Below, piece by piece: positions 4,350 through 55,167 of a stretch of DNA of 64,000 nucleotides. Numbering within the stretch: the first letter of the stretch is position 1; every line of letters begins with the position of its first letter. This DNA comes from Alloascoidea hylecoeti (lineage: Eukaryota). The stretch covers positions 620,001 through 684,000 of the forward strand of contig BCKZ01000002.1 in NCBI GenBank assembly GCA_001600815.1, written 5' to 3'. The translations under genes and the position numbers were made by a program. Under the pieces are notes generated by a model. The model saw only the letters and a list, made by a program, of their open reading frames with translations. It searched no databases and was not told where the DNA came from.

Positions 4350-4412
4350 AAACAGAGTTTCAAAATTTTTCACATTTTTAGTTTTGCTTTGATTGATCTT
4401 CTTCATATAAAC

Positions 4413-6104
4413 ATGCCCCAATCAGCTCCTTTTTCGTTGGCCGACTTAGCCAGTCCTCTAGATCCATGGGGCCCACCGGCATCCGTCCCGAGTGCATTGC
4501 GGTTTTCAGATGTTCCATACGCCCCTTTCTCAAAGGGTGACAAGTTAGGAAAGGCTGCAGACTGGTCCACCGATGCAGCTAAAGACACGAAAGACCAAAA
4601 GAGAACTCAGTACAACCGTGGACAACGTGATCCATTCCATGCCTATGGTGCTTCTGTTGCTTCATCTTTTAATGCAAAGGAGATTGATGAGGGCTCTGCA
4701 TTTTCTGTTGTGGATAACAATAAAACTTCCAGCAAGCCACGCACACAAACTGTTTTACGACGGGGTGGTGCAAACCCTTCAAACCGTGGTGGTAGTTATA
4801 ACAACAATAATACCCGTGGTGCCAATAACCAAAGATACAACAACCAAAGCACCAGAGGAGGACAACAAGGAAGATTTAACCAGAACTATAACAGAGGCGG
4901 TGGTTATCGTCGTTTTGGATGGAGAGATTATGATAAACCTCAAAGAATTCGTGATTCAAGTGTTAAGATTGGTGAAGACTGGAGATTAATAGAGAGTGTT
5001 GAGTTTAGTCGGTTATCCAAGCTGCGTCTTGATGTTAAAAATGGCGAGGATATTGATGATTACGGCCATGTTTACTATTACAATAGCAAAATTGATAGAT
5101 CAAATGGTGCAAAACTGGCTGTACTGGATAGAGGCATTTATAACCCAACAACTTCAGAAGACCCAATTATTCAACAAATTGCTAAAAAGGACACTGCTAT
5201 CGCATATGGTACAGATGTCATTATATCTCAATTGATGTGTGCTGCAAGATCAGTCATATCATGGGATATCATAATCACTAAGGTTGGAAACAAAATTTAT
5301 TTTGATAAAAGGGAAGGTGTTCCATTGGAGTACATTACTGTTGATGAAAATGCCGCAGATGCCCCTCCAGATACCAACGATGATAATGTTAATAATTCTT
5401 CGAACTTAGCTTTAGAAGCTACATTTATTAACCAAAATTTCACAGTAAATGCTGTGGATGAGAATGGCCCCAAAAAGGAATTCGCTCATGAGAACCCATT
5501 CTACAACCCTGAAGAGGAAACCGACCCTGTTCTAGCTAAAGGTTATAAGTACAGGAAATTTGCTCTTCCTTCTTCTGATCCAGAAGCTGAACCTTTACAC
5601 ATTGTTTTAAGAACTGAAGTTGATGCTGTTCAGAAAAACCCCGTCTCAGGGGCAGAAGTCGAGATTTCTATCAAAGCTCTTAACCAATATTCTTCCCGAA
5701 ATGGATTTGATTGGAAGACCCAGTTGAATTCACACAGAGGTGCCATTGTTGCAGCTGAAATCAAGAAGAACTCTAATAAATTTGCTAGATGGACAAACCA
5801 AGCCTTACTTGCTGGTGTTGAAACCATTAAACTTGGTTTCGTAGCTCGTGCGAACCCTAAACTCAATACAAAACATGTTATTCTTGGAGTCGCTTCATAC
5901 AGACCACACGATCTGGCGGTTCAAATGAATCTGAACACAAACAATGGATGGGGTATTGTTAGATCAATAATTGATATTGTTTCAGCTCAAGAAGATGGTA
6001 AATTTATTGTTGTTAAAGATCCTAATAATCCTGCTATTAAATTATACGAAGTTCCTAACGGTGATATATTTGTTGTTCCAGATGATGATGACGACGAAAA
6101 TTAG
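4413..6104 (+). CDS. EIF3D: Eukaryotic translation initiation factor 3 subunit D
   Basis: WGPP...DVPYAPFSKGDKLGKAADW, RRFGWRDYDKPQRIRDSSV, RSVISWDIII, ATFINQNF and KFARWT motifs typical of eIF3d. First ATG at 4413 (the track start 4389 is TTG). Confidence 0.93.
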   Translation: MPQSAPFSLADLASPLDPWGPPASVPSALRFSDVPYAPFSKGDKLGKAADWSTDAAKDTKDQKRTQYNRGQRDPFHAYGASVASSFNAKEIDEGSAFSVVDNNKTSSKPRTQTVLRRGGANPSNRGGSYNNNNTRGANNQRYNNQSTRGGQQGRFNQNYNRGGGYRRFGWRDYDKPQRIRDSSVKIGEDWRLIESVEFSRLSKLRLDVKNGEDIDDYGHVYYYNSKIDRSNGAKLAVLDRGIYNPTTSEDPIIQQIAKKDTAIAYGTDVIISQLMCAARSVISWDIIITKVGNKIYFDKREGVPLEYITVDENAADAPPDTNDDNVNNSSNLALEATFINQNFTVNAVDENGPKKEFAHENPFYNPEEETDPVLAKGYKYRKFALPSSDPEAEPLHIVLRTEVDAVQKNPVSGAEVEISIKALNQYSSRNGFDWKTQLNSHRGAIVAAEIKKNSNKFARWTNQALLAGVETIKLGFVARANPKLNTKHVILGVASYRPHDLAVQMNLNTNNGWGIVRSIIDIVSAQEDGKFIVVKDPNNPAIKLYEVPNGDIFVVPDDDDDEN

Positions 6105-11335: not shown

Positions 11336-12868
11336 TTATTTACTTCTTTTAGAATTCGGTATTGCAAACTCACTTTTCCGTTTTAAATTTATTTTCAGAT
11401 TCTCATCTTTATTAGTATTTTCACTTCCTTTCAATTCAATTTGACCTGCTATCTTTTTTGGAGCTATCGAAGTGAAAGTCCCAGATTTAAACCATTTATC
11501 TTCATTGTCATGGCCAATCTTTCTTGATTGTAATTCTGGATTTATCAATTGTATACCTTTAGAAACGGATAAAGTACTAACAAGACCATCAGTTATTCCT
11601 TTACTTGCCCCAGGTGCAATACTTGCTAAACCAGATAATCGTTGTTGCATACCTTTTGAAAGTTTTGGTGTAATTTTTTTATTATCATTAATTATACGAA
11701 CTTTACCACTACCAACACCATCAATCATTCCAAGACCAATTTCTTCATCATAAGAATCAATAGTTGATTCAGGTTTACCAAAAACCATTCTATTTGCAGC
11801 TTTTTGTAATTCGGTTTGTTTAAATTGTTCTTTCATTTTTCTAATTCTTTTACCACCACGTTTCTTTGATTTTGCTTCATCTGGTATTGGTAATGCTTTA
11901 GGACCTTTATTTTCTGGAGGTTCTGCTAATTTATCTAATTTTATCATAATATCTTTATGGTATTTTTGACCCATTTCACCATTTCTTGAACTATTACTAT
12001 AATCAATTCTTGATGCTAATACTATTTTACCAGCAACAATTCTTAAAGCTTGTGTTCTTAAATCTCTTGGAACAGTTTGAATTAAATCAGATTGATATAA
12101 ATAACCTTGTTGTCTACCACCAACATCTTTTTTCGAACCCAAAGCAGCAATGTTACAAGATGGAGTTGAAGATAATGCTGCTAAACCACCAGTAATACCC
12201 ATTAATTGAGCCGCTGTATGAGGACCGATTATAGCGGTTAAATTAGGAGCGAAAGTGACTAATCTAGATGAAACAAAAGTTATAATTTCATTTTTAGCAT
12301 CTATTATAGATAATAATATATCACAAGCCGACATTACAGTTTGCAATTCTTTATCATTTAATATTCGACCAGTTGTTTGGGCAGCAGACATCGAAATAAC
12401 CATAAAAGTAGAACCCGATAGAAAAGATTTAAGTTGTGTGAGTTTCGCGACATTCTGGATATCATTTCCAATTATTTTCACGGCCTTTGTATAATCTGAA
12501 GGATTTCTTAAAAGTGTATCAAGTTCAGGGAAACAAGGCCGATAGTTTAATTTGATATATCTATGAAGAACCAGTATTTCATTATCGATTTCAACAATAT
12601 GATTATTTGCATCCACTAAAAGCTTATACTCAGGATCATCTGAAGCATCCTTAGATTTCTGGAGTCTGTCATTGAAGGACGATTTGGAGTTTTGGTTGTG
12701 AAAAGCTATTTGTTTCAATAACGGGTGTATTTTGGAGAAAAGAATGGATACCGAGGGTACTTCTTTGAACTGAAAATCATCTTCTACTTCCATCACGGCA
12801 TTTCCCTCATCTGATTCTGACTCTGGGCCTGAGTCCAGGTCTCTCATGAACTGGTCTGCCAACGACAT
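11336..12868 (-). CDS. PRP31: U4/U6 snRNP protein Prp31
   Basis: NOSIC/Nop domain (FPELDTL, APNLTAIIG, PSCNIAALG), KALPIPDE..KKRGGKRIRKMKE and NRMVFG. Confidence 0.95.
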   Translation of the reverse strand: MSLADQFMRDLDSGPESESDEGNAVMEVEDDFQFKEVPSVSILFSKIHPLLKQIAFHNQNSKSSFNDRLQKSKDASDDPEYKLLVDANNHIVEIDNEILVLHRYIKLNYRPCFPELDTLLRNPSDYTKAVKIIGNDIQNVAKLTQLKSFLSGSTFMVISMSAAQTTGRILNDKELQTVMSACDILLSIIDAKNEIITFVSSRLVTFAPNLTAIIGPHTAAQLMGITGGLAALSSTPSCNIAALGSKKDVGGRQQGYLYQSDLIQTVPRDLRTQALRIVAGKIVLASRIDYSNSSRNGEMGQKYHKDIMIKLDKLAEPPENKGPKALPIPDEAKSKKRGGKRIRKMKEQFKQTELQKAANRMVFGKPESTIDSYDEEIGLGMIDGVGSGKVRIINDNKKITPKLSKGMQQRLSGLASIAPGASKGITDGLVSTLSVSKGIQLINPELQSRKIGHDNEDKWFKSGTFTSIAPKKIAGQIELKGSENTNKDENLKINLKRKSEFAIPNSKRSK

Positions 12869-12992
12869 GTTTTTGGATGGTGATGATGGTGTAAATATAT
12901 ATTATATTGGTACATCACATGACCGACCACAAACCTCCAGTTACCCTGCCTCTACCCCCATCCAAATTTTCACTGTCTGATTTCCCGAAAGC

Positions 12993-13091
12993 ATGAAGCC
13001 GTTTGGACTTTTGCGTGCCTCCAGACTTCTGAAACCTCATAGCTGCTTACTAAGAACAACCCGCATCCGTGGATCCTCGTGCCTGCCCAGC
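12993..13091 (+). CDS. VAS1: Predicted upstream exon encoding a mitochondrial presequence for ValRS (spliced 13091^13211, in frame with ATG 13259)
   Basis: MKPFGLLRASRLLKPHSCLLRTTRIRGSSCLPS (Arg/Leu/Ser-rich, no acidic residues), GTATGT donor 13092, CTAAC 13181, TAG acceptor 13210, then 16 open codons FYIDSHPRSFHYSKIK into MSDQ. Confidence 0.75.
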
Positions 13092-13258
13092 GTATGTTCC
13101 TCCTCGCCCAATTGGGTCACGTGCGTTCCATCGCATGTGATCTGTATCTGACTCTTTGTGTCTGTTGTCTGACTCATTTTCTAACCTTTAGTTTTTATAT
13201 TTGTTACTAGTTTTATATTGATTCTCATCCTCGTTCTTTCCATTATTCAAAAATAAAA

Positions 13259-16200
13259 ATGAGCGATCAAACGACAACACCTCCTTCCGCTGATAACTCA
13301 GCTGAAATTGTTATAAACCCAATTGATGAAAATGGGAATCCAAAATCTGCAAAACAAATCGAAAAAGAACGTAAAAAAGCTGAAAAAGAAGCAAAATTTA
13401 AAGCAAAACAAGCTAAAAAAGCAGCTGCTGCTACGAAAGCTAAAACTGCAAAGCCAAAGGAGAAAAAGAAAGAGGTTGAACCAATTCCAGAATTTATTGA
13501 TGAGACCATTCCAGGAGAAAAGAAGATCTTGGTATCTTTTGATAACCCTGCTTTAAAAGCTTATAATCCAAAAATTGTTGAATCTTCTTGGTATGAATGG
13601 TGGGAGAAAAGTGGATTTTTTGAACCTGAGTATACTGCTGATGGTAAAATTAAACCAGAGGGTTTATTTGTTATCCCCGCTCCTCCTCCAAATGTAACTG
13701 GTGCTCTTCATATAGGACATGGTCTAACAATTGCTATTCAAGATTCTTTTATAAGATATTATAGAATGAAGGGTAAAACTGTTTTATTCTTACCTGGATT
13801 TGATCACGCTGGTATCTCTACACAATCTGTCGTTGAAAAACAATTATGGAATCAATCTCAAATAACACGTCATGATTTAGGTAGAGAAGCTTTTGTCGAT
13901 AAAGTTTGGGAATGGAAAGAAGTTTATCACAAAAGGATTAAAAATCAATTGAAAAAATTAGGTGCTTCTTATGATTGGAAGAGAGAAGCTTTTACACTTG
14001 ATCCTCCATTATCAAAAGCTGTAATTGAAACTTTTGTTAAATTACATGATGAAGGTACAATTTATAGAGCAAATAGATTGGTTAATTGGTGTGTTCATTT
14101 AAATACAACATTATCCAATTTAGAAGTTGAAAATAAAGAAATTCCTGGAAGAACTCTTGTTAATGTTCCTGGTTATAGTGAACCAGTTGAATTTGGTGTT
14201 TTAACTTCATTTGCTTATCAAGTTGAAAATTCAGATGAAAAGTTAATTGTTGCAACCACACGTCCTGAAACATTATTCGGTGACACTGGTGTTGCTGTTC
14301 ATCCAAATGATCCAAGATATATTCATTTACATGGAAAATATGTTCTACATCCATTCTTGGATAGAAAATTACCAATCATTACTGATGATGAAGCTGTTGA
14401 TATGGAATTCGGTACGGGTGCTGTTAAAATAACACCTGCTCACGATCAAAATGATTACAACACTGGTAAAAGACATAATTTAGAATTTATTAATATTTTT
14501 ACTGATAATGGTTTATTAAATGAAAATTGTGGCTCTGAATGGAATGGTATTAAACGTTTTGATGCTCGTAAAATTGTTATTGAAAAATTAAAGGAAAAAA
14601 ATTTATATATTGGTCAAGAAGATAATGCAATGACAATTCCTTTATGTGCAAAATCGGGTGATATAATTGAACCAATTTTAAAACCACAATGGTGGGTTGC
14701 CCAAAAAGAAATGGCTGATGCTGCTTTAGATGCTGTTAAATCTGGTGAAATTACAATTACCCCAAAAACATCTCAACAAGAATATTACCATTGGTTGGAA
14801 AATATTCAAGATTGGTGTATTTCTAGACAATTATGGTGGGGGCATAGATGTCCTGTTTATTTTGTAGATATTAAAGGTAAAGAACAGGAAAAAGAAGATG
14901 GAAAATGGTGGATTGCTGGAATCACTGAAGAAGATGCTCAAACAAAAGCAAAACTAAAATTCCCTGGTGAATCTTTTACTTTAGAACAAGATGAAGATGT
15001 TTTAGATACTTGGTTTTCTTCAGGCTTATGGCCTTTCTCAACATTAGGTTGGCCAGATAAAACAAAAGACATGGCTGATTTTTATCCAATGTCAATGTTA
15101 GAAACTGGTTGGGATATTTTATTTTTTTGGGTTGCAAGAATGATTATGCTTGGTATTAAAATGACTGGCAAAATTCCTTTTAAAGAAGTCTTTTGTCATT
15201 CTTTGGTTCGTGATGCCCAAGGTAGAAAAATGTCAAAATCTTTAGGAAATGTTGTTGATCCTTTAGATGTTATAACTGGTATTTCTTTGAAAGATTTACA
15301 TGCTAAATTACAAGTTGGTAATCTAGATCCAAGAGAAGTTGCAAAAGCTAGCGAAGGCCAAAGATTATCATATCCAAATGGTATTCCAGAATGTGGTACA
15401 GATGCTTTAAGATTTGCCCTATGTGCTTATACAACTGGTGGTAGAGATATTAATTTGGATATTTTACGTGTTGAAGGTTATAGGAAATTTTGTAATAAAA
15501 TCTATCAAGCTACAAAATTTGCCTTAATTAGACTAGGTGATGATTATGTACCACCAGCACAAATTATTAAAACTGGTAAAGAAAGTCTTGTTGAAAAATG
15601 GATTTTACATAAATTGGTTCAACATGCGAAAGCAATTGAACAAGCATTTGAAGATCGTGATTTTGTAACTATCACAACTTCAATTTATACATTTTGGTTA
15701 AATGAATTATGTGACGTTTATATTGAAAATTCAAAATCTCTTTTTGAAGGCACCCCAGAACAAAGACAATCTGCAAAGGATACTTTATATACTTGTATTG
15801 ATGCTGCCCTTAAATTCATTCATCCATTTATGCCTTTTGTTACCGAAGAATTATGGCAACGTATCCCACGTCGTTTGAATGATACAACTCCTTCAATCAT
15901 TAAGGCTTCATATCCTCAATATGATGCACAATTTGATGATCCTGAATCTGAAAAAGATTATGAACTTATCATTGATATTGTTCGGTCTACCAGATCTGCC
16001 CTACATACCTTCAAAATTAACAAGAATGGTCAAGTTACTGTCCAAGTATCTGATGCTTCTGAATTGGAAATGATCACTCAGCAATCCGCTAGTATTGTCG
16101 CATTGGTTAAACCTATTGATAATATTACAGTCATATCATCAGAAGATTCTGTTCCATCTGGCTGTTACTTGGAAACTGTTACACCATCTGTTACTGTTCA

Positions 16201-16435
16201 TGCTTTAGTTAAAGGTCTTGTTGATTTAGATGCTGAAATTAAAAGACAAGAATCCAAATTATCAAAAACTATAAAATCAAAACATGATTTGGAGAAAACA
16301 ATCAGTAAAAAAGATTATAATGAAAAAGCAAGTGAATCTGCAAAAGAATTAAATACTAAAAAATTAGAAGATTTAGATGCTGAAATTAGTGGTATACAAG
16401 TTATGATTGCCAATTTTGAAAAATTGAAATTGTAA
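13259..16435 (+). CDS. VAS1: Valyl-tRNA synthetase (cytosolic start)
   Basis: PPPNVTGALHIGH (HIGH), DWCISRQLWWGH, GRKMSKSLGN (KMSKS) and a C-terminal coiled coil. Confidence 0.98.
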   Translation: MSDQTTTPPSADNSAEIVINPIDENGNPKSAKQIEKERKKAEKEAKFKAKQAKKAAAATKAKTAKPKEKKKEVEPIPEFIDETIPGEKKILVSFDNPALKAYNPKIVESSWYEWWEKSGFFEPEYTADGKIKPEGLFVIPAPPPNVTGALHIGHGLTIAIQDSFIRYYRMKGKTVLFLPGFDHAGISTQSVVEKQLWNQSQITRHDLGREAFVDKVWEWKEVYHKRIKNQLKKLGASYDWKREAFTLDPPLSKAVIETFVKLHDEGTIYRANRLVNWCVHLNTTLSNLEVENKEIPGRTLVNVPGYSEPVEFGVLTSFAYQVENSDEKLIVATTRPETLFGDTGVAVHPNDPRYIHLHGKYVLHPFLDRKLPIITDDEAVDMEFGTGAVKITPAHDQNDYNTGKRHNLEFINIFTDNGLLNENCGSEWNGIKRFDARKIVIEKLKEKNLYIGQEDNAMTIPLCAKSGDIIEPILKPQWWVAQKEMADAALDAVKSGEITITPKTSQQEYYHWLENIQDWCISRQLWWGHRCPVYFVDIKGKEQEKEDGKWWIAGITEEDAQTKAKLKFPGESFTLEQDEDVLDTWFSSGLWPFSTLGWPDKTKDMADFYPMSMLETGWDILFFWVARMIMLGIKMTGKIPFKEVFCHSLVRDAQGRKMSKSLGNVVDPLDVITGISLKDLHAKLQVGNLDPREVAKASEGQRLSYPNGIPECGTDALRFALCAYTTGGRDINLDILRVEGYRKFCNKIYQATKFALIRLGDDYVPPAQIIKTGKESLVEKWILHKLVQHAKAIEQAFEDRDFVTITTSIYTFWLNELCDVYIENSKSLFEGTPEQRQSAKDTLYTCIDAALKFIHPFMPFVTEELWQRIPRRLNDTTPSIIKASYPQYDAQFDDPESEKDYELIIDIVRSTRSALHTFKINKNGQVTVQVSDASELEMITQQSASIVALVKPIDNITVISSEDSVPSGCYLETVTPSVTVHALVKGLVDLDAEIKRQESKLSKTIKSKHDLEKTISKKDYNEKASESAKELNTKKLEDLDAEISGIQVMIANFEKLKL

Positions 16436-25003: not shown

Positions 25004-26808
25004 TTAATTTTCATTTTCATTTTCATTTTCATTTTCTAAAGAAGGATCGAAATCTTTAAAAGATTCTTTAAATCTATTAGCATCGTTTGTTTCTTCAGTT
25101 TCTGTTTGTTGACATTTTCTCCAATCCCAACGTTGTGGTAATTTAATAGCATTAACAATTAATTTTCTAATGAATTGTAAATCAAATTTTCCATTAATAG
25201 ATGATACTAAAGTTAATGGTTGTTTATTGATTGATGAAGAAAATATTGTTATTTTAAAATAATTTGAAGATAGTAGAGATTCTTCATATGAATCATTTGA
25301 AATTGTAGTGAAATTGGAATTGACAAGAGCTTTATTATCAATATTTTGTGAAATTACTTGATTAAATTCTAAACCTGCAAGTTTATCATTTAATTTTATA
25401 TCTTTTAAAAGTCCATCAATTAAATCATTTGGAATAACAACAGATTGAGTATGTAAATGAATTCCATGACTTGTACTAATTTGCCAAAATATAACAGCAA
25501 GATCAGGAAATTTTTCATTATACATTTTAACAATATTCTTTTCATATTGGTTCATTTCTTTATATAAAGGTAAATCAATAATTTTTTCATTGTTATCTGC
25601 TTGTAATGAATTTGATAAAGTTGGAATATGAGCAATTGGAACAATAATAATATGAGCAGGGAAATTTGGTAATTTATAATTATGTTCATTATTAAATTCA
25701 TTCCAATTATTTAATGGACCTTTAGCTAAAGCAATATAACATGAATTACCAATTGAAGTTATTAGATGAGTTTCAATTTTTGGATTTGATAAACAAAAGA
25801 AACAAGAACTTGGATCAATTGGTTCATGTTGTCTATTTCGTTTTTGACGTTTTCTGTTATTGTGTGAAGAATCATAATCATTATAATCATTATTTAAAGA
25901 TTGATTTTGATTTTGATTTTGATTTTGATTTTGATTTTGATTTTGAAGTCGTAAAATTTTCCGTTTTAAATAATAAGGATTTTTCATAAAATTTATATTA
26001 TTATCAACTTGATTATTTTGTTTTAAATTAATATTAAAAGCATAAAACCATTTTTGTTTTGGTATTGAATTAGATTGTGATAAATTAACAAAACGAGTAT
26101 AAGAATTTGGAGACCATTTAAAAGGTTTAAATTCTTTAAAAGAAGATTTTTCAAAACCAACTGCAAAATGATATTGAGGTTTTAAAATTGGTATTAAATC
26201 ATCTAATAGATTTGATCGTTCAATTAAATTGATATTTTCATAAGTATTTGTTTTATCATTTTGAAGATATTCAACCATTGAGGTTGGCCATTGATAGGTT
26301 ATTAAAATATCAACTAAAGGATTATCTTTTGTTCTAAAATCATAATTTGATGAATCCGCTTTAACACCAAGTAATTCAGTTATTTTAAGCAAAGATATGC
26401 CTTCATCTTTTAAGATGTGACCACTTATGAAGGCTATTCGTAAACCGGATATCAATTTAATAACACCGACTCTGCCCATATAAGTGAAGTTAGTAGATAC
26501 ATCAATGGAGTTTGAGTCCTTTGTGCTGAGGCTACGTAATCCTTCGGTGAAGTAAGTCGGACAAACAATGGAAGTTGGTGAAGATAAAGTGCTGATATCG
26601 GATTCTGAAGGGATTATGTCTCCTAACAGCAGAACGGAATGAAAAGGACCGGATTTCTCATTTATCACGGCGGATTTTTTGAGGACGGAGTCCAGTTCGG
26701 ACGGGGCAGGGTTCAAGACGAGTCTGTTTAGTTGGTCAGCATCTGCGGTAGTAAACAAGCAAACAAACAACACAAAACTTACACTTTCAGTTTCGAAGAG
26801 TCCGCCAT
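25004..26808 (-). CDS. DRN1: Drn1/CWF19L1 lariat-debranching cofactor; exons 26808-26783 and 26723-25004
   Basis: Spliced N-terminus MADSSKLKVLVLNP...NEKSGPF, pseudo-metallophosphatase (VDILITYQWP, KPQYHF) and CwfJ domain (CFFCLSNP, AKGPL, HIIIVPIAH, HLHTQ, FKDFD). Intron 26782-26724 GTAAGT...GCTGAC...CAG. Confidence 0.9.
25902..25946 (-). repeat. (CAAAAT)n coding microsatellite giving a (QN)n tract in Drn1
   Basis: About 7 copies of TGATTT on the plus strand. Confidence 0.9.
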
Positions 26809-27113
26809 AAATTCAAGCAAATTTACAGCCCAAAAAAATCGAAATCAGCACTGGAAAAAGTGTAATGTTGTTAGAATATTATATTATTATTATAATACGT
26901 GTTTGTAATATTATAATACTGCAGGGTTTGTGCAGCAAACATACATGCACATGCATGGCTTATATTTTGAGCGTCTTCGGTATAAAAAAGGGCAAATTTC
27001 CTTTGTCTCTTCTCTTTTTCTTCTCCACAAAACATTAATATTGAGATTCAAACCTCCCTGGCTTGTTTTACTTTTATACTTATCACTTCACGACTTATTT
27101 ATTATACTACGAC

Positions 27114-28571
27114 ATGGTTCACTTAGGCCCCAAAAAACCCCCTTCCAGAAAGGGTTCCATGGTAGATGTCCCAAAAAATTTGATGCAAGAAATTGCTAAA
27201 TTGGAGGCCTTGTTCACAGTCGATGCCCCCAAACTGAAAGCCATCACCGACCATTTCGTCACCGAGCTGACAAAAGGCCTGTCCAAAAAAGGTGGAAACA
27301 TCCCAATGATACCTGCCTGGGTAATGGACTACCCTGATGGCTCAGAAACTGGTGATTACATTGCAATTGACCTCGGTGGAACTAACCTAAGGGTTGTCTT
27401 GGTTAGTCTGCTGGGAGACGGCAAGTTTGACGTTTCCCAATCAAAATACAGAATCCCCTCATACATCAGAACGACAAAAAACCACCAAGATCTATGGGAT
27501 TTTATTGCCGTTTCCCTGTCCAACTTCTACAAAGAAACTTTCCCAGATGGTACAACTGAAAAAATCCCCCTGGGTTTCACCTTCTCCTATCCATGCAGTC
27601 AAACTTCAATCGACACTGGCGTGTTACAACGTTGGACTAAAGGTTTTGACATTGATGGTGTTGAAGGCCATGATGTCGTTCCAATGTTGAATAATGCTTT
27701 GAAGCAGCATGATGTCCCCATTGAAGTTTTTGCTTTAATTAATGATACGACCGGTACTTTGGTCGCTTCAAGATATACTGACCCACAGGCGGAAATGGGT
27801 TTGATTTTCGGTACTGGTTGTAATGGCGCTTACTATGAAAAAGTTAACGCAATACCTAAATTAGAAGGAAAATTAGACCCAACTGTTGATTTAAATGGCC
27901 CTATGGCAATCAATTGTGAATATGGTTCGTTTGATAATGAACATTTAGTTTTACCAAGAACTAAATATGATATTATTATTGATAGAGATTCCCCAAGACC
28001 TGGTCAACAAGCTTTTGAAAAAATGATTTCTGGTTATTACTTGGGTGAAGTTTTCCGATTAGTTTTATTAGATTTACATGCTCAACGTCTTGTTTTTGAA
28101 GGACAGGATTTAAGAGATTTACAAGAAGCTTTTAAATTAGATGCTTCATTCTTAGCAACTATCGAAGAAGATCCTTTTGAAAATTTAAATGATGTTGAAG
28201 ATTTATTTACCGATGTTTTAGGTATATCAACAACTGATCCAGAAAGAAGATTAATTCGAAGATTAGCTGAACTTATTGGTACAAGAGCTTCAAGATTATC
28301 GGTTTGTGGTGTTGCTGCTTTAGCTAAGAAGGCAAATCTTAAAGTATGTCATGCTGCTGCTGATGGTTCAGTTTTTAATAAATATCCAAATTTTCAAGAA
28401 CGTGCTGCTCAAGGTCTTGATGATATTTTTGATTGGAATTTACCAATAGATCAACATCCAATTAAATTAGTTGCAGCTGAAGATGGTTCTGGTGTCGGTG
28501 CTGCTGTTGTTGCCGCTTTAACAGCAAAGAGAATTGCTGCTGGAAAAGCAGTTGGACAATTAGAAGCTTAA
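27114..28571 (+). CDS. HXK2: Hexokinase
   Basis: MVHLGPKKPPSRKGSM start, DLGGTNLRV, LGFTFSYP, WTKGF, INDTTGTL and AEDGSGVGAA. Confidence 0.95.
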   Translation: MVHLGPKKPPSRKGSMVDVPKNLMQEIAKLEALFTVDAPKLKAITDHFVTELTKGLSKKGGNIPMIPAWVMDYPDGSETGDYIAIDLGGTNLRVVLVSLLGDGKFDVSQSKYRIPSYIRTTKNHQDLWDFIAVSLSNFYKETFPDGTTEKIPLGFTFSYPCSQTSIDTGVLQRWTKGFDIDGVEGHDVVPMLNNALKQHDVPIEVFALINDTTGTLVASRYTDPQAEMGLIFGTGCNGAYYEKVNAIPKLEGKLDPTVDLNGPMAINCEYGSFDNEHLVLPRTKYDIIIDRDSPRPGQQAFEKMISGYYLGEVFRLVLLDLHAQRLVFEGQDLRDLQEAFKLDASFLATIEEDPFENLNDVEDLFTDVLGISTTDPERRLIRRLAELIGTRASRLSVCGVAALAKKANLKVCHAAADGSVFNKYPNFQERAAQGLDDIFDWNLPIDQHPIKLVAAEDGSGVGAAVVAALTAKRIAAGKAVGQLEA

Positions 28572-29902: not shown

Positions 29903-32268
29903 TTATAATCCTTTCCAAATGGCTTTTTCTACACACTCAAATTTTCTTTTACAATGTTTAACAAGCCCAAGATATTTCATTTCTGCTAATCGCCTCAAGA
30001 ACCAACCAAGAGTAAGCTTATCCCAAATTTCATCCTCTGAATTCAAATCTTTATCAAATAATAACAATAAATCTTTTGTATCTTGAGTTATGTCATCACC
30101 ACTTTGTTCTACTTCCTCTTCTTCAAATTTTAATCGACGATTTAATTCTTTCTTCAATCCTTCAACTATTCTATCTCTTTGTAAATTACCTTTAAATGCT
30201 TGATACCAATCATAAATATTTACAAAAGTACCAGCTTCACGATATAATGTATACATTTGTGATATCATTGGATCAAGAGATCCTAATATAGTTTTTGGTA
30301 TATGATGGTTATCCAAATAATGTTTTGGATTTGTTAATGCTGCTTCTAAAGAAGGTCTATATTTTGGATAAAATGCAAAACTATCCAATGATGTATCATT
30401 AATAATAAATAATTCCCAATATAAAAATCGTTTATATGGTTTAAGATTTTCAGATAAAAATTTCATAATTAAATTTGAAATTTGATTTAATGTTTCAGGT
30501 AATGTTATCATTAAATTATCATCATTATTATTATCATTTGAATTATTAAGTAATGAATTAATATTAATTTCAAATTCTTCTTTAATTTGTTTATATAAAT
30601 ATTGTTCTGATTTATTATTTGAAATTTTCCAAATTTCAAGAATTTTAATAAAACTTTTTAATGAATTTTTTTTAAAACATGATATTAATTCTCTTAAAAA
30701 TGAACTATCAATTAAATTATTTGATATAATCATTGAATAAATATCTAATTTTGAAATTTTATAACTTATTGTTGGTATAAATAATTGTAATGAATTAATA
30801 ATTTCAATAATATCAATAATTTTTTTTGAAAATTTTTGAAAATTTAAAATTGATTTAATAATAGATTTTGAAATTATTTCTTTATTTTCATCATTTAACC
30901 ATTTATCTTTTAAATTTGTTAAATTAATTTTACCTGATTGAACTTCTGATTCTATAAAATCTATAAATGATGGTAACATTCTAATTGATTTAAAATGTTC
31001 AATTGTAAAATATTCTTCAATAATTAATTCAATATCTTCTGTTTTTCGGTGTAAATTTGTTAATATACTAAATGGTGATGAATAAAAATGTGTCATATAT
31101 GTATATTTTAATGATGAAATGAATCCATCTAAACTTTTTGTATTTTGTCTATAACGATTTAATAATGATAAAATTAATTTTGGACCAAGAAATATACCTT
31201 GATTTGTATCATTTGATAATAATAATTTTTCACCTAATTCATTTAATAAAATATCACTATTTTTTGGTTTAAATTTTTTACCTTTTAACACTTTAATACA
31301 TGACTTTGGTAATTTATCTTCAAATATTTGTAAAGAATTTGAAATTCCAATAATTATTTTAAATGGAATTTCAAATAAATAAGAATGTGATAATTTCAAT
31401 AATGATGATAAAATATATGGATCAAATGTATCACCATCTTCAATAATTATAACAATTCTTAAATTTTCTCTTTTAAATTTTTTTTTATTTGAATTTAATT
31501 TTATTTGAATTTTACACCAATCTGATAAAATATCATAATCATATCTTAAAGTTTGATGATATTTTTTACTTAAATCTTCATCTTCTTTTGAATCATAAAA
31601 TTCTTCATTACCTGAATCATCATCATCATCATATCTAGCTTTTAATCTACCTTCAAGATTATCATTTTCAGTTATATCAATAACAATCTTTTTTAATATT
31701 GATTTAAGATTACCACATTCTTTAGAATTTAAAGAAACTGAATAAATATTATCATCATTTTTTAAAAGTGTTGAAACTTGAGTAAATAATCGAACATGGT
31801 TTGCAAAATTTGAACCAGGAAATACCATAGCAAGATCTAAATATCTATTATTCTTTTCAAATCCTAATTTAGTAAATGATATTATATCTTCAATTAATTG
31901 TAAAGAAGAAGATTCTCGAAATTTATTAATAACATCTTGTTGAATACTCCATGCTTCATTAAACATTTCCCATCGTAATTTCACATTCTCAGTTGGTTCC
32001 TTTCCACCTAATAGTTTAATAAATGGAATATCTTTATCAATGATTGAAACTTCCTCTTCATATCTATTAAGAGGTTGCTCTATGTCATCGTTGTCTTCTT
32101 CATTTTCTAAAATGTCGTGTTTACCTACTAAAAAATATGTTGTCTATTAATTTGATTAGCCTTTTGACACTATTTCCTGATATATCATAACAGAAACAAA
32201 CATACCTTTTGATTATCCTCTTCATTATTTCTGGATCTTTTCAGTCTTTTGACTCTCTCTGAAATCAT
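29903..32268 (-). CDS. ORC3: Origin recognition complex subunit 3; exons 32268-32206 and 32143-29903
   Basis: PFIKLLGGKEPTENVKLRW, LKYTYMTHFYSSP, LYREAGTFVNIYDWYQAF and C-terminal VEKAIWKGL. Intron 32205-32144 GTATGT...GCTAAT...TAG. Confidence 0.92.
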
Positions 32269-33583
32269 ATAAGATATATTTAAGATATATTTTGTTTTGA
32301 TAAAAAAACCATTTTCCAAACGCATTTAGATCTCCTTACACCCACACCTCTGTTTACTTTTTTAAACCATCGATATCTCTCAGGTTGAAAGTTGCCTACC
32401 CAATCCATGTCCACAAGTCATAGACATGGGATCAAAAGCCTTTTAAACGAGTACACCCACTTCGTATGTTTATCTTTTATATGATCCTATCAAAAATTCA
32501 TAGCAGTATGTCGCCAACCGGGGTAAGGTTTCCTTCTCAATTAGCCTCATAATTCTACATGTATACTCAGTATGATATTTCAACATCCATAAATTCCAAT
32601 CCCAAAACGCTACAGGTCTAAATTTTAACTCAAATATACAAATCTAATTTTAATTATAAAAAGTGGAGAAAGATTTCTCACGGACAACTGAAACCCGAGA
32701 CACTTCACTAAAAGAATAGTAAATCTGTAGTATACGAAAGTTAAAGGAATTGGGCTCAGGATTTCTAAAAAAATCAACACAACGCGTCCCGGAATCCAGT
32801 GAGTATTTTATTAACGCGATCAAAGGGTCAAAATCCCTCTATTCCGATTACCGAAACTCCTATTTAGAACATCAAAGCACACTCAATAATGCCATACTCA
32901 GATATGAGAATCTGAATCAAAAAAAGTTAATGGAAAAAGACAGCTAAAAATCAATACCATCTGGAAGAACTTTAACAAGCATTGATATTATAATGAATGT
33001 TTTTCTGATCATTTACTAACAAATTTATCACTAGTCCTGAAGTTGTTAAACTTTATATACCTAGCAAGTACCTTTTTTAGCTGTCTTTCTCCATTAACTT
33101 TTTTTGATTCAGATGTTGCTGGAAGATCCAGTTCAGTTGTCATCTCGGAGTTTGACATTACTGAACGTGTTTTGATGCCCATGCTCTTAATAATATGAGG
33201 ACCTTGGACTAAATGTTTATATTTTTTACTTATTAGGATCAGCAGTACGGTTAACATAATTGAGGAGGTATAATAACTATTAATAAGTACTGATAGCAAA
33301 ATATTACCAACAATATTTCATATAAATAGCATGAACACTTCGTTACAAAATCTTTTGTTAACACTTTTCCTAATATTCCTACATATTACGTCAATACCAG
33401 ATCTAGATACTATTGTTGGAAATGTTAAATTTAAACAAATGATTTATATTATCTATACTCTAAAGTTTTCAGTAAATAACAAAAATAAAAGGACATAATT
33501 ACGTATGTGAATAACAACAATCTAATATATAAATAAATAAATAAATAAATAAATAATAAAGTAACTTTCAATTGATATTTAAT

Positions 33584-42877: not shown

Positions 42878-44062
42878 TTATCTTCTTTGATCATAATATG
42901 CTCTATTATCTTGTGGTGGATAACCTTGATATTGTTGAACAGGATTAGGAAATACTTGTTGTTGAGGAAATCCATTACCATAGCCACCAACATTATTGTT
43001 TTGTTGTTGTTGTTTACGATCTTTACCCCAACCAGCTTTTAATAACCTACCACCAAAATTAACTCCTGATAATTGAACAATTGCTAATGCAGCACGTTCA
43101 TGAGAATCATATCTAACGAAAGCACAATTACGATCAGGATGATGTTTAAAGTCAACAATGTAACCAAAATTTTGTAATAATGGAATTAAATCAGAATGAT
43201 TTGTATATCTTGGTAAATTTCCAAGATAAACAGTTGTTTGCCAATTAGGAGTTTGTCTTAAAACGATATCATAGGTTGGAGGGACACCAGATGATAATTC
43301 AGCATTAAATCTTTGTTGTTGAAGTTGTTGCTGTTGTTGCTGTTGATTCATTTGTTGTTGATTCATTTGTAAATGTTGTTGTTGTTGTTGCTGTTGTTGT
43401 TGCTGTTGTTGTTTATGAGAAGCCCAATTACATCTTATAGCTCTTCCACCAATCCATTCATTATTCATTGTTCTTAGAGCATCTTCAGCATCTTCTTTTT
43501 TATCAAATGAAACAAAACCATAACCTCTTGATCTTCCAGTTTGCATATCCCACATAACATGAGCAGAAATCATTGAAGACCATTTTGAAAAAGATTTTGA
43601 TAATAAATCATCATTTACTTCACTTGATAAATCACCAATAAATATAGAGAAAATTGGCAGGTCAGATTTTATAGCTTGTGATTGGAACGCCCTTGCTAAT
43701 TTTAAAGGAGAAGAAGCTAAAATTCTATTTTGTAAAGCATGTAAAGCTAAATCAGCAAATTGTGAAGATTCATATTCAACGAATGCATAATTAAACCCAC
43801 GTCTGTTTTTATCGGGTAAAATTTTAACAGAAGATACTTTTCCAGTAACACCAAACAATTCACGTACCATATCTTCAGTTACGGATTGATCAACGCCGCC
43901 GACGTATAAAACAGTCGGAGAAACTTCTCGTCCGCCGTCTGTTGCAATAGCAGGGACGGGGGTTGGAGGAGAAGAAGCATCAGCCGGAGAAGAAGCTAAG
44001 GTAGGATCTAAGCCAGAATCCTGAGACTGAGACTGGGATTGGGACAGAGAAGAATCCTGTAA

Positions 44063-44101
<39 letters not shown>

Positions 44102-44137
44102 TTGTTGTTGTGCCTGATTGGCTTGAGATTCAGACAT
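42878..44137 (-). CDS. PUB1: TIA-1-like poly(U)-binding protein with three RRMs and polyQ tracts
   Basis: GGREVSPTVLYVG, FNYAFVEY, AHVMWDMQTGRSRGYGFVSF and IRCNWA. Confidence 0.93.
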
Positions 44138-44498
44138 TTTCAAAACAAATTTAAATAAATATTAACTGAATTAATTAAAAAGAAGGAAATAATTATAAAC
44201 AAAAAAGAGAATATAAATAAAATCGAATAAGCAAAATTAAATTAAATTAAACAAAATTAAATAGAATAGAAAAATGCTGATTTTTTCTTAATTTTTTTAT
44301 AAACTATGTTAAAAGAAAAGTGAGTGAGTGAAAGTGGAAGAGAAAATGGATTGGAGGTGTTGGCAGTAAAATTTGCTGAGGTTTAAAATTATTTAAAAAT
44401 TTAAAATTATAATTTAAAATTAAAAATAAAAATAAGAATTAGCGTGTTTACAAAATTCAGAAAATCCCCAAAAAGACCTAAGTTACGTAATGCTTATG

Positions 44499-48268: not shown

Positions 48269-49735
48269 TTAATAAATGGAGATTAGATAATCTCCACATA
48301 CGTGCCAAACCGAGGGTGCAAATGTTTTTATCCTGTTTAAACTTATTTTTGAAACTGAACTCTTGTATTCATTTTGAGTTTTTAGTTTTTTGATGTTGTG
48401 TAAAAGAAGGGTTAATAATTCATTTCTTGTATCTTCATACCATTTCTCTAAATCTTCTTCCGAAACATTATCATGAACATGTACCATTACTGATGATAAT
48501 TGATTATGATATAAATTTAATAAACTTATGTTACAAGAAATATCCCAACTTGGTTTACTTGTTGGTAATAATCCCAAATTAATATGTTTTATTGTTCCAA
48601 TTTCAAATTTATTTTCGTTTTCAAAATTTTGAGAAAACATTTCATTTAATCTTTTAAATGCATTTTCATTAGATTCATGAAATACAAATAATCTAACATC
48701 ATGTAATTTTAAATAATCATTTAATTTAAATGATTCATTTTGAGAAATAACTTTAATTGTCCATTTATTTAATTCTGATCCTTTTTTAATTCCTTCAATA
48801 CTCCATGGATTAATTTCCCATCCAAAAACTTTACAATTATTATTATTTTTTAGATAACTAAATGTAAAATATCCAATCCCACAATATAAATCAATAATTA
48901 TATCTTTTTCTTCATTTGATTTAAATTTTAAAATTCGTTCTTTTTCTTTTATATTACCTCTACTAAACATTGTGAAACGTGGTGCCCATACTTGATTAAT
49001 ACCATTTTGAATACTTTTAACCCAAAATGCATTTTGAAAATCTTCAATTGTTGGTGATTCAAACATTGAAGGTGTTGGTTCTGGTCCAAAATCTCCATAT
49101 AATGGTATTAAATTAAACGGTCTTCGCATTATATCTTGTTCAATTATTGGATTGTTTGTTGCTATATGTGTAAATGTTTTAAAAATTGGAAATTTGAAAA
49201 TCATATATTTGAAGAATAATATCTGTTGCTGGGACTCATGTTTATGATCATTGCTTGAATTGAAATATATTTTCCAATCTGATGTTGTGAATGAATTCAA
49301 AGGGAATAAAATCATTGGATCATATAAACTATATCTTTTAGGTATTTGTGATAATAATTTTTTAGTTAATATTAATGAATTATCATTTTCAATAGGATAT
49401 TGTTTAAAAAAATTTATAATTATTGTTTCTAATGTAATTTTATTTGTATCTATATTCACATTTATAATTGATTGATCTTCATCTCTAAATTGATACCATA
49501 TATTCTTCTCTTCTTGTTGTTTTGTTAAATACAAAATTTCACTCGTTTCTAGTTCATTGTTTTTTGTTAAATCAATACTTGAAAGATTTGTAGGTATAAC
49601 AAAAATTGATTTATTTACACTACCATCATTTTGAGTTATGATTTTTCTTGATTTGTCTAATAAATTTTTTGATTCAAGAAGAAGTTTAATAGGTTTGATT
49701 AATTGTGGTTTATCTGTTAAGATATTTATCGCCAT
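48269..49735 (-). CDS. TRM12: tRNA wybutosine biosynthesis aminocarboxypropyltransferase Tyw2
   Basis: PLYGDFG, QNGINQVWAPRFTMFSRGNIKEKERI, DLYCGIGYF, HINLGLLPTS and IKTFAPSVWHVCGD. Confidence 0.93.
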   Translation of the reverse strand: MAINILTDKPQLIKPIKLLLESKNLLDKSRKIITQNDGSVNKSIFVIPTNLSSIDLTKNNELETSEILYLTKQQEEKNIWYQFRDEDQSIINVNIDTNKITLETIIINFFKQYPIENDNSLILTKKLLSQIPKRYSLYDPMILFPLNSFTTSDWKIYFNSSNDHKHESQQQILFFKYMIFKFPIFKTFTHIATNNPIIEQDIMRRPFNLIPLYGDFGPEPTPSMFESPTIEDFQNAFWVKSIQNGINQVWAPRFTMFSRGNIKEKERILKFKSNEEKDIIIDLYCGIGYFTFSYLKNNNNCKVFGWEINPWSIEGIKKGSELNKWTIKVISQNESFKLNDYLKLHDVRLFVFHESNENAFKRLNEMFSQNFENENKFEIGTIKHINLGLLPTSKPSWDISCNISLLNLYHNQLSSVMVHVHDNVSEEDLEKWYEDTRNELLTLLLHNIKKLKTQNEYKSSVSKISLNRIKTFAPSVWHVCGDYLISIY

Positions 49736-51176
49736 TATTAAGTAGATTGATGATCATGAATGAAAAGTTTTGAAAATATTATGATCACGTGATGCATACA
49801 CAGGGCCGTAGGTACATATTCTGAGTGAAACACACGAACTTTGATCAAGTGACACCAACCAACTGTAATAAGAATATTTATTAAATCTGAGTAACTAATA
49901 CAAACAGGTTCGCTGACTGTAGCTGCATTAAAGCAAAAAGTCAATTCCGATAAATAATTCAATTATACACTTTATCGGTAGGTTTCATTCCATTTCCATA
50001 ATTTCTTTGCATTTTCATTTTTGAAGTCTGTACCAACGTGCAAGGCAACAATTGAGACTTGAAAATTTCTCCAATAACTTTGTGTCGATTAATTTAGAAC
50101 TATAGAAAGTTGTGGGGATTAATTAATTATGTAAGCAAGTTAATTGGCCAATTCTTCGAAAACCTAATTAACATATTCCAAAAACTATAATTAATTTTTC
50201 AAGAATTATCATTAATTTTCTGATCTTAAGTTAAAGTTAGCTCGCTTATTTTTAGTGATGATTGGATACAATTGATAGCCTCAAATTAATATTAATTGAA
50301 AACAAAGATACTGCCATTTAGTTTGTAAAAGAAACCCGCACAGCCGATGAAAATCAATTGCGCTCGTCCGCGCTTATATTAATCTTGGATGTGTAATATT
50401 AAATAGATTTTGAAGTAGAAGTTCACCCTGAAGCACTCCCTGTATTTAATTATATGGTGGATAGGCATTGGGCTGGGTCACTTTGCCATTCCATATATAA
50501 TATGATCATGAATCATGATGACATTGACCACTTCCAAATTGTTCCAATTGCAGTTGAAAGCTTCAACAATAGATTTTATTATAATTATAAACACAAACGT
50601 ATATGCATATTTGGTTAATCCATCATCATACTCCCTCGAAGCCCCATTAACTACACCTCATGACTATTTAATGTAGTATCCATACATAACTAGAGAGTGC
50701 GAATCTGAATAAAATCAATTGTCTATGTCAGTTATATCCAAGGAAGTTTATACACGATCTACGCAGATTCTACGTTTTATCTGTCATAACTACCATTAAT
50801 ATTAATAATATTGTTCTTACATCGGCACCATTCATATATTTTAAGAGCCATATGATCATCAAGATCATGAGTCAATTAAGCTTAAGTGAGAAATAAATTT
50901 AAGCTATTAATATTAAGTTCATGCAATGTAATTATTTAATACTATGTTAATACAACAATTCAAAACCTTCGATCGAACTTAAAATATATACACCATTTAT
51001 AGAAGTTTGAGAAGGGAGAGGACAACCGCATTTAGCTAAACATTGAATATAGCACCTAACCCATGTAAAAAGTGGGGCTCGATGAGAATCAGGCAATTAA
51101 TGTAATTGTAAGAATATATAAATAAGAGAGGAATTGTCTTAAATTTCAAACTCTTCTTAGTTCTGTACAACAAAAC

Positions 51177-53982: not shown

Positions 53983-55167
53983 ATGTTACGAATTTTATCA
54001 CAAACTATAAAAGTGAAGGCTTTCGCCCCTTTGACTCCCGCTCGTTCTACGTTTAGTACTACATCAATAATTCGCACAATGTCTGTTGCCAACCTAAAAG
54101 ATTTAAAAACAACTGTTAACCCATCTCTTGTCCTTAAACAGGCCCATGAGATCGTCTTTGAAGACCGTCCAATCCCAACTCTACCAGATCCACATTATGT
54201 CAAGTTAAATATCAAGAAGACTGGTATCTGTGGTTCAGATGTTCACTATTTCACCCATGGTTCAATTGGTAACTTTATTGTTAAGGATCCTATGGTTTTA
54301 GGTCACGAATCAGCTGGTATTGTAACCGAAGTTGGTTCTGCTGTTACCTCCTTGAAAGTTGGTGATAAAGTTGCCATTGAACCTGGTATTCCATCAAGAT
54401 ATTCTGACGAGTACAAAGTTGGTAAATATAATTTATGCCCACATATGGCTTTTGCTGCTACCCCACCATACGATGGTACTTTAGCAAGATACTATACTGT
54501 TCCAGAAGATTTTTGTGTCAAGCTTCCAGAAAATGTTTCTTTAGAAGAAGGTGCTATGGCTGAACCACTTTCTGTTGCTGTTCATGTTACAAGATTAGGT
54601 GGTGTTACATTTGGTTCTAAAGTTATTGTATTTGGAGCTGGTCCAATTGGTTTATTGGCAATTGCAACTGCTAAAGCTTATGGTGCTACAGATATCATTG
54701 CAGTTGATATTATTCCATCAAAACTTGAAGTTGCAAAAGAAATGGGAGCAACACATACTTTTATTCCATCAAAGGATGATTCGTCAGAAGTAAGTGCAGA
54801 AAAGATTCAAAAACAAGTTGGTTTTGCTCCAGATATTTGCATTGAAGCTTCGGGTGCTCAACCATCTATTCAAACAGCCGTTCATGTCCTCGCACCAGCC
54901 GGTGTTTTAGTTCAAGCAGGTCAAGGTAGAGATTATGTTAATTTCCCAATCACAATGGTTTCTATTAAAGAGCTTGTGTTAAAGGGATCATTCAGATATT
55001 TCTACGGTGATTATAAGATTGCTGTTGGTTTAATTGCCGAAGGAAAAGTTAATGTTAAGAGAATGATTACTCATAGAGTTAAGTTTGGTGATGCTGTTCA
55101 AGCTTTTGAACTTGTTCGTGATGGAAAAGCAATTAAATGTATTATTGATGGTCCAGAAGATGAGTAA
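53983..55167 (+). CDS. XYL2: NAD-dependent xylitol/sorbitol dehydrogenase (MDR family) with a 32-aa N-terminal extension
   Basis: TGICGSDVHY, VLGHESAG, VAIEPG, YNLCPHMAFAATPP, GAGPIG and GSFRY; second Met at 54079. Confidence 0.93.
   Translation: MLRILSQTIKVKAFAPLTPARSTFSTTSIIRTMSVANLKDLKTTVNPSLVLKQAHEIVFEDRPIPTLPDPHYVKLNIKKTGICGSDVHYFTHGSIGNFIVKDPMVLGHESAGIVTEVGSAVTSLKVGDKVAIEPGIPSRYSDEYKVGKYNLCPHMAFAATPPYDGTLARYYTVPEDFCVKLPENVSLEEGAMAEPLSVAVHVTRLGGVTFGSKVIVFGAGPIGLLAIATAKAYGATDIIAVDIIPSKLEVAKEMGATHTFIPSKDDSSEVSAEKIQKQVGFAPDICIEASGAQPSIQTAVHVLAPAGVLVQAGQGRDYVNFPITMVSIKELVLKGSFRYFYGDYKIAVGLIAEGKVNVKRMITHRVKFGDAVQAFELVRDGKAIKCIIDGPEDE

Follow-up and report, generated by a model that had tools for sequence, protein, structure and literature searches.

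The 64-kb stretch of contig BCKZ01000002.1 from Alloascoidea hylecoeti that we analysed, here called the window, carries on its plus strand an open reading frame (ORF) that by its matches is a class I valyl-tRNA synthetase (ValRS), the orthologue of VAS1, present at full length with catalytic core and anticodon-binding domain. Two Pfam profiles match it, tRNA-synt_1 (PF00133, E 1.3e-161) and PF08264 (E 3.7e-35), and its identity to yeast Vas1 proteins is about 70% at 96-100% coverage. A PRP31 homologue is the divergent neighbour, and 390 bp separate the PRP31 ATG from the ValRS ATG at 13259. Within this intergenic region an initial annotation of the DNA placed a hidden leader exon that would give ValRS a mitochondrial presequence, and it took the intron behind that exon for the promoter of the cytosolic isoform. 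The first proposal is well supported by the statistics of the sequence (shuffles, compositional rank and a motif found at presequence ends), and the spliced leader exon at 12993-13091 is very probably real. The second proposal draws support from a cluster of sites and from an AT-rich stretch free of ATG, and it is unproven. The features are collected in Table 1.

Table 1. Features of the ValRS-PRP31 intergenic region and its flanking genes (window positions)
Feature	Position	Strand	Sequence or remark
Exon 1, coding part (predicted)	12993..13091	+	ATG plus 32 codons; first 33 residues of the predicted presequence
Spliceosomal intron, 119 nt (predicted)	13092..13210	+	GTATGT 13092-13097; TTCTAAC 13179-13185; TAG 13208-13210
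Exon-2 leader (predicted)	13211..13258	+	16 codons, FYIDSHPRSFHYSKIK, in frame with the ValRS Met; R-x-F-x-x-S at 13232-13249
ValRS (VAS1 homologue) ORF	13259..16435	+	1058 aa; ATG 13259 is the start of the cytosolic form
Cbf1/CDEI-type site, RTCACRTG, 5' of exon 1	12914..12921	+	ATCACATG
Cbf1-type site in intron	13116-13123	+	GTCACGTG
Cbf1-type site in intron	13134-13141	-	ATCACATG
Gcn4-type site in intron	13149-13154	+	TGACTC
Gcn4-type site in intron	13170-13176	+	TGACTCA
Only consensus TATAWAWR of the intergenic region	13192..13199	-	TATAAAAA
PRP31 homologue, divergent neighbour	11336..12868	-	Pfam Nop 6.6e-65, Prp31_C 1.5e-34

Anatomy of the ValRS leader

The ValRS ATG stands in an A-rich context, ATAAAAATGA, and the frame 5' of it is closed by the TAG at 13208, which is the TAG of the predicted 3' splice site. 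A contiguous N-terminal extension of the enzyme is therefore impossible. A non-AUG start within the exon-2 leader was considered and ruled out, as the in-frame TAG leaves room for no more than 16 residues. The layout of an upstream in-frame AUG, a presequence and a cytosolic AUG appears only once the predicted intron is removed. The upstream ATG, at 12993, is the first possible start in its frame, since an in-frame TGA lies four codons 5' of it, and its context is GAAAGCATGA, with A at -3. It opens a peptide of 33 codons, MKPFGLLRASRLLKPHSCLLRTTRIRGSSCLPS, that contains seven Arg or Lys residues and no Asp or Glu and that ends exactly at the GTATGT donor, just as first annotated. Joining 13091 to 13211 brings the exon-2 leader into frame with the ValRS Met, also as proposed, and the joined leader has 49 residues, split 33 + 16 by the intron. 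Once spliced, the leader is free of further ATGs, in all frames, between those at 12993 and 13259; the intron contains two, and from 13137 up to ATG 13259 there is none.

The donor, branch and acceptor of the predicted intron match those of the putative introns seen elsewhere in the window, which have GTATGT or GTAAGT donors, NNCTAAC/T branch sequences (TTCTAAC several times) and an AG 12-23 nt from the branch A. The spacing here is slightly longer, 26 nt to the distal TAG. A proximal AG, at 13190-13191, follows the branch A by just 7 nt, and the initial annotation was right to find it unusually near. Work in S. cerevisiae has found an AG so close to the branch point, at 7 nt, to be too near for use; by that rule, the frame-restoring TAG would be the first usable acceptor. 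If the intron is retained, the frame runs into a stop after 52 codons, at the TGA at 13149, and if the proximal AG is used, it does so after 9, so that both outcomes end at a stop, as had been predicted.

The base composition of the region is uneven. The GC content of the window is 31.5%, and it reaches 54% in exon 1 and 49% in the first 85 nt of the intron, then falls to 21-23% in the last 34 nt of the intron and in the exon-2 leader. GC peaks of 52-56% in the window lie mostly over the 5' ends of genes, for example at 4363-4715, 12896-13214, 27164-27471 and 43819-44145; candidate causes are biased gene conversion at promoter hotspots and nucleosome positioning. A small RNA gene in the GC-rich stretch was also considered. 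It was ruled out, as an Rfam scan of 12700-13400 returned nothing at gathering score (best E 0.65) and no tRNA genes were found in the 64-kb window.

The case for and against the leader exon

How readily would such an exon arise by chance? We searched the 390-bp intergenic region for an ATG frame of at least 10 codons ending at a donor, followed by a branch sequence 5-45 nt before an AG that restores the frame into ATG 13259. Exactly one arrangement was found, the one described above. Among 20000 dinucleotide-preserving shuffles of the intergenic region, a spliceable in-frame exon turned up in 14 when the signals were strict (GTATGT or GTAAGT, with CTAAC) and in 292 when they were loose. An exon of the strict type lies upstream of only one of 20 long ORFs of the window, that of ValRS.

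The exon-1 peptide also has the look of a presequence. Our reference set was 36 non-redundant yeast ValRS presequences, and in compositional likeness to these the peptide comes second of the 485 peptides in the six frames of the window that open with ATG and stay open for 33 codons or more. Its net charge is +7, where the reference set runs from +3 to +7, and its hydrophobic moment is 0.67, where the set spans 0.38-0.81. In the exon-2 leader, RSFHYS (13232-13249) fits R-x-F-x-x-S. Of the 36 presequences, 18 have this strict motif at their end, in most cases as an R-x-F-x-M-S that runs across the cytosolic Met, and it occurs in 5 of 824 controls, each consisting of the 16 open codons that precede an ATG of the window. 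The resemblance to a cleavage context of the matrix processing peptidase, pointed out in the initial annotation, is borne out by these counts, the site being a predicted one. RSFHYS conforms to R-x-(F/L/I)-x-x-(S/T/G) near a presequence end, which we take to be the R-10 type of matrix-peptidase site, and cleavage there is again a prediction.

One would moreover expect this gene to have a presequence, because 44 of the 120 homologues listed carry one, a contiguous extension of at least 25 residues before the conserved MS(D/E/T) start. Among the same 120, 75 either have nothing before the cytosolic start or begin with it, and one has a 14-residue piece. The anatomy of the leader, and the statistical improbability of that anatomy, are observations; the splicing and the import of the product we infer from them.

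Several results weigh on the other side. A profile built from the 36 ValRS presequences fails to recognise exon 1, which comes 377th of 3093 six-frame peptides with E 77, and it likewise failed to pick out the joined leader. The likeness of RLLKPH in the leader to RLLNCH in S. cerevisiae was set aside, as it finds no statistical support when the presequence profile misses exon 1. The 52-residue read-through ORF is without a real homologue in two very large protein libraries. For the leader, a word search found no homologues, and HMMER gave three matches, with E from 1e-4 to 9e-4, to long proteins with many matched stretches; we read these three as low-complexity matches. Missing homologues are usual for presequences.

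The codons of exon 1 are also atypical. Two of its seven Leu codons are CTG; in 18 ORFs of the window the figure is 35 of 895, and in the ValRS ORF it is none of 83. Of the five Arg codons of exon 1, one is CGC, as against 8 of 450. Its GC content of 54% compares with 32%, and where GC is locally high, Arg, Ser, Leu and Pro are favoured whatever the frame. The 124 bp between the PRP31 ATG and ATG 12993 are tight for two core promoters, and the distal 3' splice site is further from the branch A than in the other putative introns. Searches of public reads added nothing for the exon: three metatranscriptome runs gave only pieces of 33-54 bases, with less than 95% likeness, from conserved parts and other organisms, and no splice joint, and a scan of metagenome DNA for relatives gave 80 loci, each at most 53% identical and hence not from yeast relatives.

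Might the exon then be an accident? The whole of 12869-13258 could be promoter and 5' untranslated region (UTR) of a cytosol-only ValRS, with the mitochondrial enzyme encoded elsewhere, as in Schizosaccharomyces, or made in some other way. The undetectable homology of exon 1 to other presequences, its atypical codon usage and GC content, and the compositional bias toward Arg, Ser, Leu and Pro noted above all suit this explanation, and PMC7049704 gives S. pombe a separate, diverged mitochondrial ValRS. We consider a chance exon improbable. The independent improbabilities (14 of 20000 shuffles, rank 2 of 485, 5 of 824 motif controls) add up, and among the 120 homologues listed, no named species pairs a presequence-bearing row with a markedly diverged second ValRS.

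A further explanation takes ATG 12993 for the start of a regulatory upstream ORF (uORF) of 52 codons, ending at the TGA at 13149, on an unspliced long transcript, where it would throttle the translation of ValRS and encode no presequence. The unspliced frame is indeed open for 52 codons, ending inside the first TGACTC, and uORFs are common in fungal leaders (PMC7049704). We regard this as very improbable: it leaves unexplained the perfect set of GTATGT, TTCTAAC and TAG, the restored frame and the in-frame R-x-F-x-x-S, and the unspliced leader would hold two further ATGs.

The intron as a candidate promoter

If the spliced leader supplies the mitochondrial enzyme, where would the cytosolic form begin? 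Given the exon, we lean towards an intron that also carries the promoter of the cytosolic form. The initial annotation listed one Cbf1-type site, at 13116, and the Gcn4-type TGACTC at 13149 and TGACTCA at 13170, and all are present within the 119 nt; to these our search adds the RTCACRTG sites at 12914 (+) and 13134 (-). RTCACRTG, which we take to be the Cbf1/CDEI type, has five matches in the 64 kb, three of them in the ValRS-PRP31 intergenic region and two of these in the intron. The only other RTCACRTG locus in the window is the palindromic ATCACGTGAT at 49784-49793, which lies just 5' of an ORF at 48269-49735 (-). TGACTC has 18 matches in the window, its chance frequency overall, and the two in the intron are 21 nt apart. 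To gauge the cluster we made 20000 dinucleotide shuffles of the intron itself, which retain its higher GC; at least two TGACTC occurred in 24 of these, at least two RTCACRTG in 26, and both pairs in none.

The four intronic sites span 13116-13176, and the AT-rich, ATG-free stretch comes after them; as far as sequence features go, this is a candidate region for transcription starts. The plus-strand reading at 13192-13199 is a TATA-like element with one mismatch, about 60 bp before ATG 13259. Activating sites, a TATA-like element, a short leader and a strong AUG, in that order, is the look, in sequence, of a compact yeast promoter. Aminoacyl-tRNA synthetase genes are Gcn4 targets. Yeast upstream activating sites are not known to act from downstream of a start site, and by this rule the intronic sites, if they serve ValRS, imply starts downstream of them.

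The case for the promoter has its weak points too. The motifs were picked after inspection of the sequence, so that the shuffle figures overstate their significance somewhat. The end of the last Gcn4-type site and ATG 13259 are 82 bp apart, and an intronic promoter would imply a short 5' UTR, of less than about 80 nt and probably of less than 40. The sole consensus TATA is on the minus strand, and the site cluster could serve PRP31 instead, 250-310 bp away. The lack of ATG in the stretch before 13259 is weakly informative (shuffle P 0.16-0.19).

What scheme would bring these elements together? We propose that in the host, an AT-rich budding-yeast lineage, one VAS1-type gene would make both forms of ValRS. 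Transcripts from 5' of ATG 12993 would be spliced from 13091 to 13211, and the basic, amphipathic presequence of 49 residues thereby joined to ValRS would direct import into the mitochondria; the R-x-F-x-x-S in its exon-2 part would be the type of site that matrix processing peptidases cut. The abundant cytosolic enzyme would be made from ATG 13259, most likely on transcripts of a second promoter, whose activating sites, two Cbf1-type and two Gcn4-type, would lie within the intron at 13116-13176. Transcripts for this form would start in the final 80 bp before ATG 13259, a stretch rich in AT and free of ATG. Both transcription starts, and any regulation, we infer from the arrangement of the sites. 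The words "starvation-inducible" for the cytosolic form and "splicing-gated" for the mitochondrial one, which the initial annotation used, are interpretation only. Taken whole, with one gene, two proteins, a spliced mitochondrial leader and an intronic cytosolic promoter, the scheme as read from sequence has in our judgement about an even chance of being right.

It is possible, and in our view rather unlikely, that a single promoter region between PRP31 and exon 1 does all the work. Spliced transcripts would then supply the cytosolic form, either because they start inside exon 1, 3' of ATG 12993, or because ribosomes scan past that ATG, and the intron motifs would serve PRP31 or nothing. Either route would also yield the cytosolic form, because the spliced leader is free of ATG between the two starts, which both routes need. 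There is precedent for each: according to a review, S. cerevisiae VAS1, HTS1 and CRS1 each use one gene with long and short transcripts and two in-frame AUGs (PMC9604717, citing Chatton 1988), and according to Wallace et al. 2020 (PMC7049704), the dual-localised synthetases of Cryptococcus, ValRS included, have an upstream AUG, a targeting sequence and a downstream AUG in strong context, and are made mainly by leaky scanning past a weak first AUG, mostly on one transcript. The presence of eIF3d in the window also counts on this side. Four points count on the other. ATG 12993, with A at -3 in GAAAGCATGA, is not obviously leaky; the dense intronic cluster, seen in none of the 20000 shuffles, is left without a role for its own gene; the activating sites, by the rule given above, would not be expected to act from downstream of the start; and an abundant enzyme would have to rely on a shared promoter of 124 bp.

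To return to the intronic promoter, a more ambitious version of it may be sketched, which we offer tentatively and think unlikely. The intron would be the main promoter of the gene, with Gcn4- and Cbf1-type factors driving the cytosolic mRNA, and transcription from a weak divergent start, which PRP31 shares, would run through it and yield the spliced mitochondrial mRNA. Starvation would then shift the ratio of the isoforms by promoter competition. From the place of this lineage in the ValRS tree described below, and from the early-branching models that all begin at the cytosolic Met, the split presequence might also be the older state of VAS1, from which the contiguous form of S. cerevisiae would have arisen by intron loss.

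Comparison with other systems and meaning for annotation

How does the arrangement compare with known cases of dual targeting? Its nearest relative by gene is S. cerevisiae VAS1, for which the review cited above (PMC9604717) agrees with the initial annotation that both forms are made from alternative transcript starts. The two enzymes belong to the same family and are about 69-70% identical, the basic presequences have 46 residues in VAS1 and 49 here, and the two genes share R-x-F-x-x-S at the presequence end and the conserved MSD cytosolic start. The difference is that the presequence is contiguous in S. cerevisiae and in 43 other listed homologues, whereas here it is split 33 + 16 by the 119-nt intron. 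In the open-access literature we came upon no gene for yeast ValRS or another synthetase whose presequence is split by an intron.

The nearest relative by layout is S. cerevisiae APE2, in which a predicted mitochondrial signal is encoded by an optional first exon, a likely transcription start falls within the intron, and the cytosolic form begins at a downstream AUG (Hurtig et al. 2020, PMC7491326). RNA-seq supports this layout, which is conserved across Saccharomycetaceae (PMC7491326). At ValRS, too, a 5' exon would bring an AUG and a predicted targeting signal, and the shorter cytosolic form is proposed to come from starts within the intron. APE2 encodes a different enzyme in a different lineage, however, and at ValRS exon 2 contains the cytosolic AUG, the presequence is interrupted by the intron, and the case is a prediction from sequence. 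Cryptococcus resembles the present gene in serving both compartments from a single gene, through a layout of two AUGs with the targeting sequence between them; what sets the present gene apart is the A at -3 of its first AUG and the intron, with its cluster of sites, that separates the two starts. Schizosaccharomyces also supplies both compartments, by means of a second gene, having separate cytosolic and mitochondrial ValRS genes (PMC7049704). The layout is thus already known for other genes (APE2), and the ValRS case, as predicted here, is an annotation fix and not a new mechanism.

In a ValRS tree of 25 sequences, the window sequence falls between two groups (support 100/99 and 100/100), one consisting of Geotrichum, Yarrowia, Nadsonia, Blastobotrys and Tortispora, the other of Pichiaceae, the CTG clade, Wickerhamomyces and Saccharomycetaceae. 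All six named ValRS models of the early-branching group (two Geotrichum species, Yarrowia, Nadsonia, Tortispora and Blastobotrys) begin at the cytosolic Met, and it could be that these models, too, hide leader exons. A model that lacks a presequence is often a mere annotation choice, because Ogataea has ValRS models of both 1045 and 1073 residues for near-identical genes. The window also encodes an eIF3d homologue, at 4413-6104 (+) (Pfam eIF-3_zeta, E 3.7e-184), a factor reported in PMC7049704 as lost in S. cerevisiae and C. albicans; its presence fits an early-branching yeast lineage.

Other genes of the window raise similar questions about their 5' ends. The ORF of an ORC3 homologue, at 29903-31966 (-), is matched by the Pfam ORC3_N profile only from position 47, and upstream of it (31967-32330, -) a GTATGT at 32205, a GGCTAAT and an AG 12 nt on would define a 62-nt intron and join a 40-codon open frame to the ORF; an unannotated first exon is probable there on the sequence. 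The GC-rich stretch at 26555-26950 (-), 5' of a CwfJ-family ORF at 25004-26479 (-), has GTAAGT at 26782 and GTATGT at 26944, and it probably holds 5' exons and introns of that gene. A zinc-type alcohol or polyol dehydrogenase ORF at 53983-55167 (+) (Pfam ADH_N, ADH_zinc_N) has 32 presequence-like residues at its start, then Met33 and after it SVANLK, and is a possible contiguous two-start gene for a dual-targeted protein.

What would the ValRS locus mean for the annotation of such genomes? Gene callers that choose the longest ORF would label this ValRS as cytosol-only, and the organism would appear to be without a mitochondrial ValRS. Numerous public yeast ValRS models begin at the second Met, those from Naumovozyma and Kazachstania among them, and some of the models that do so are plain annotation choices. 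The interest of the locus is moderate, and lies chiefly in its being an annotation trap and a convenient test case. If the intronic promoter is true, the locus would be a compact budding-yeast case of an alternative first exon and an alternative promoter that together control the targeting of a protein.

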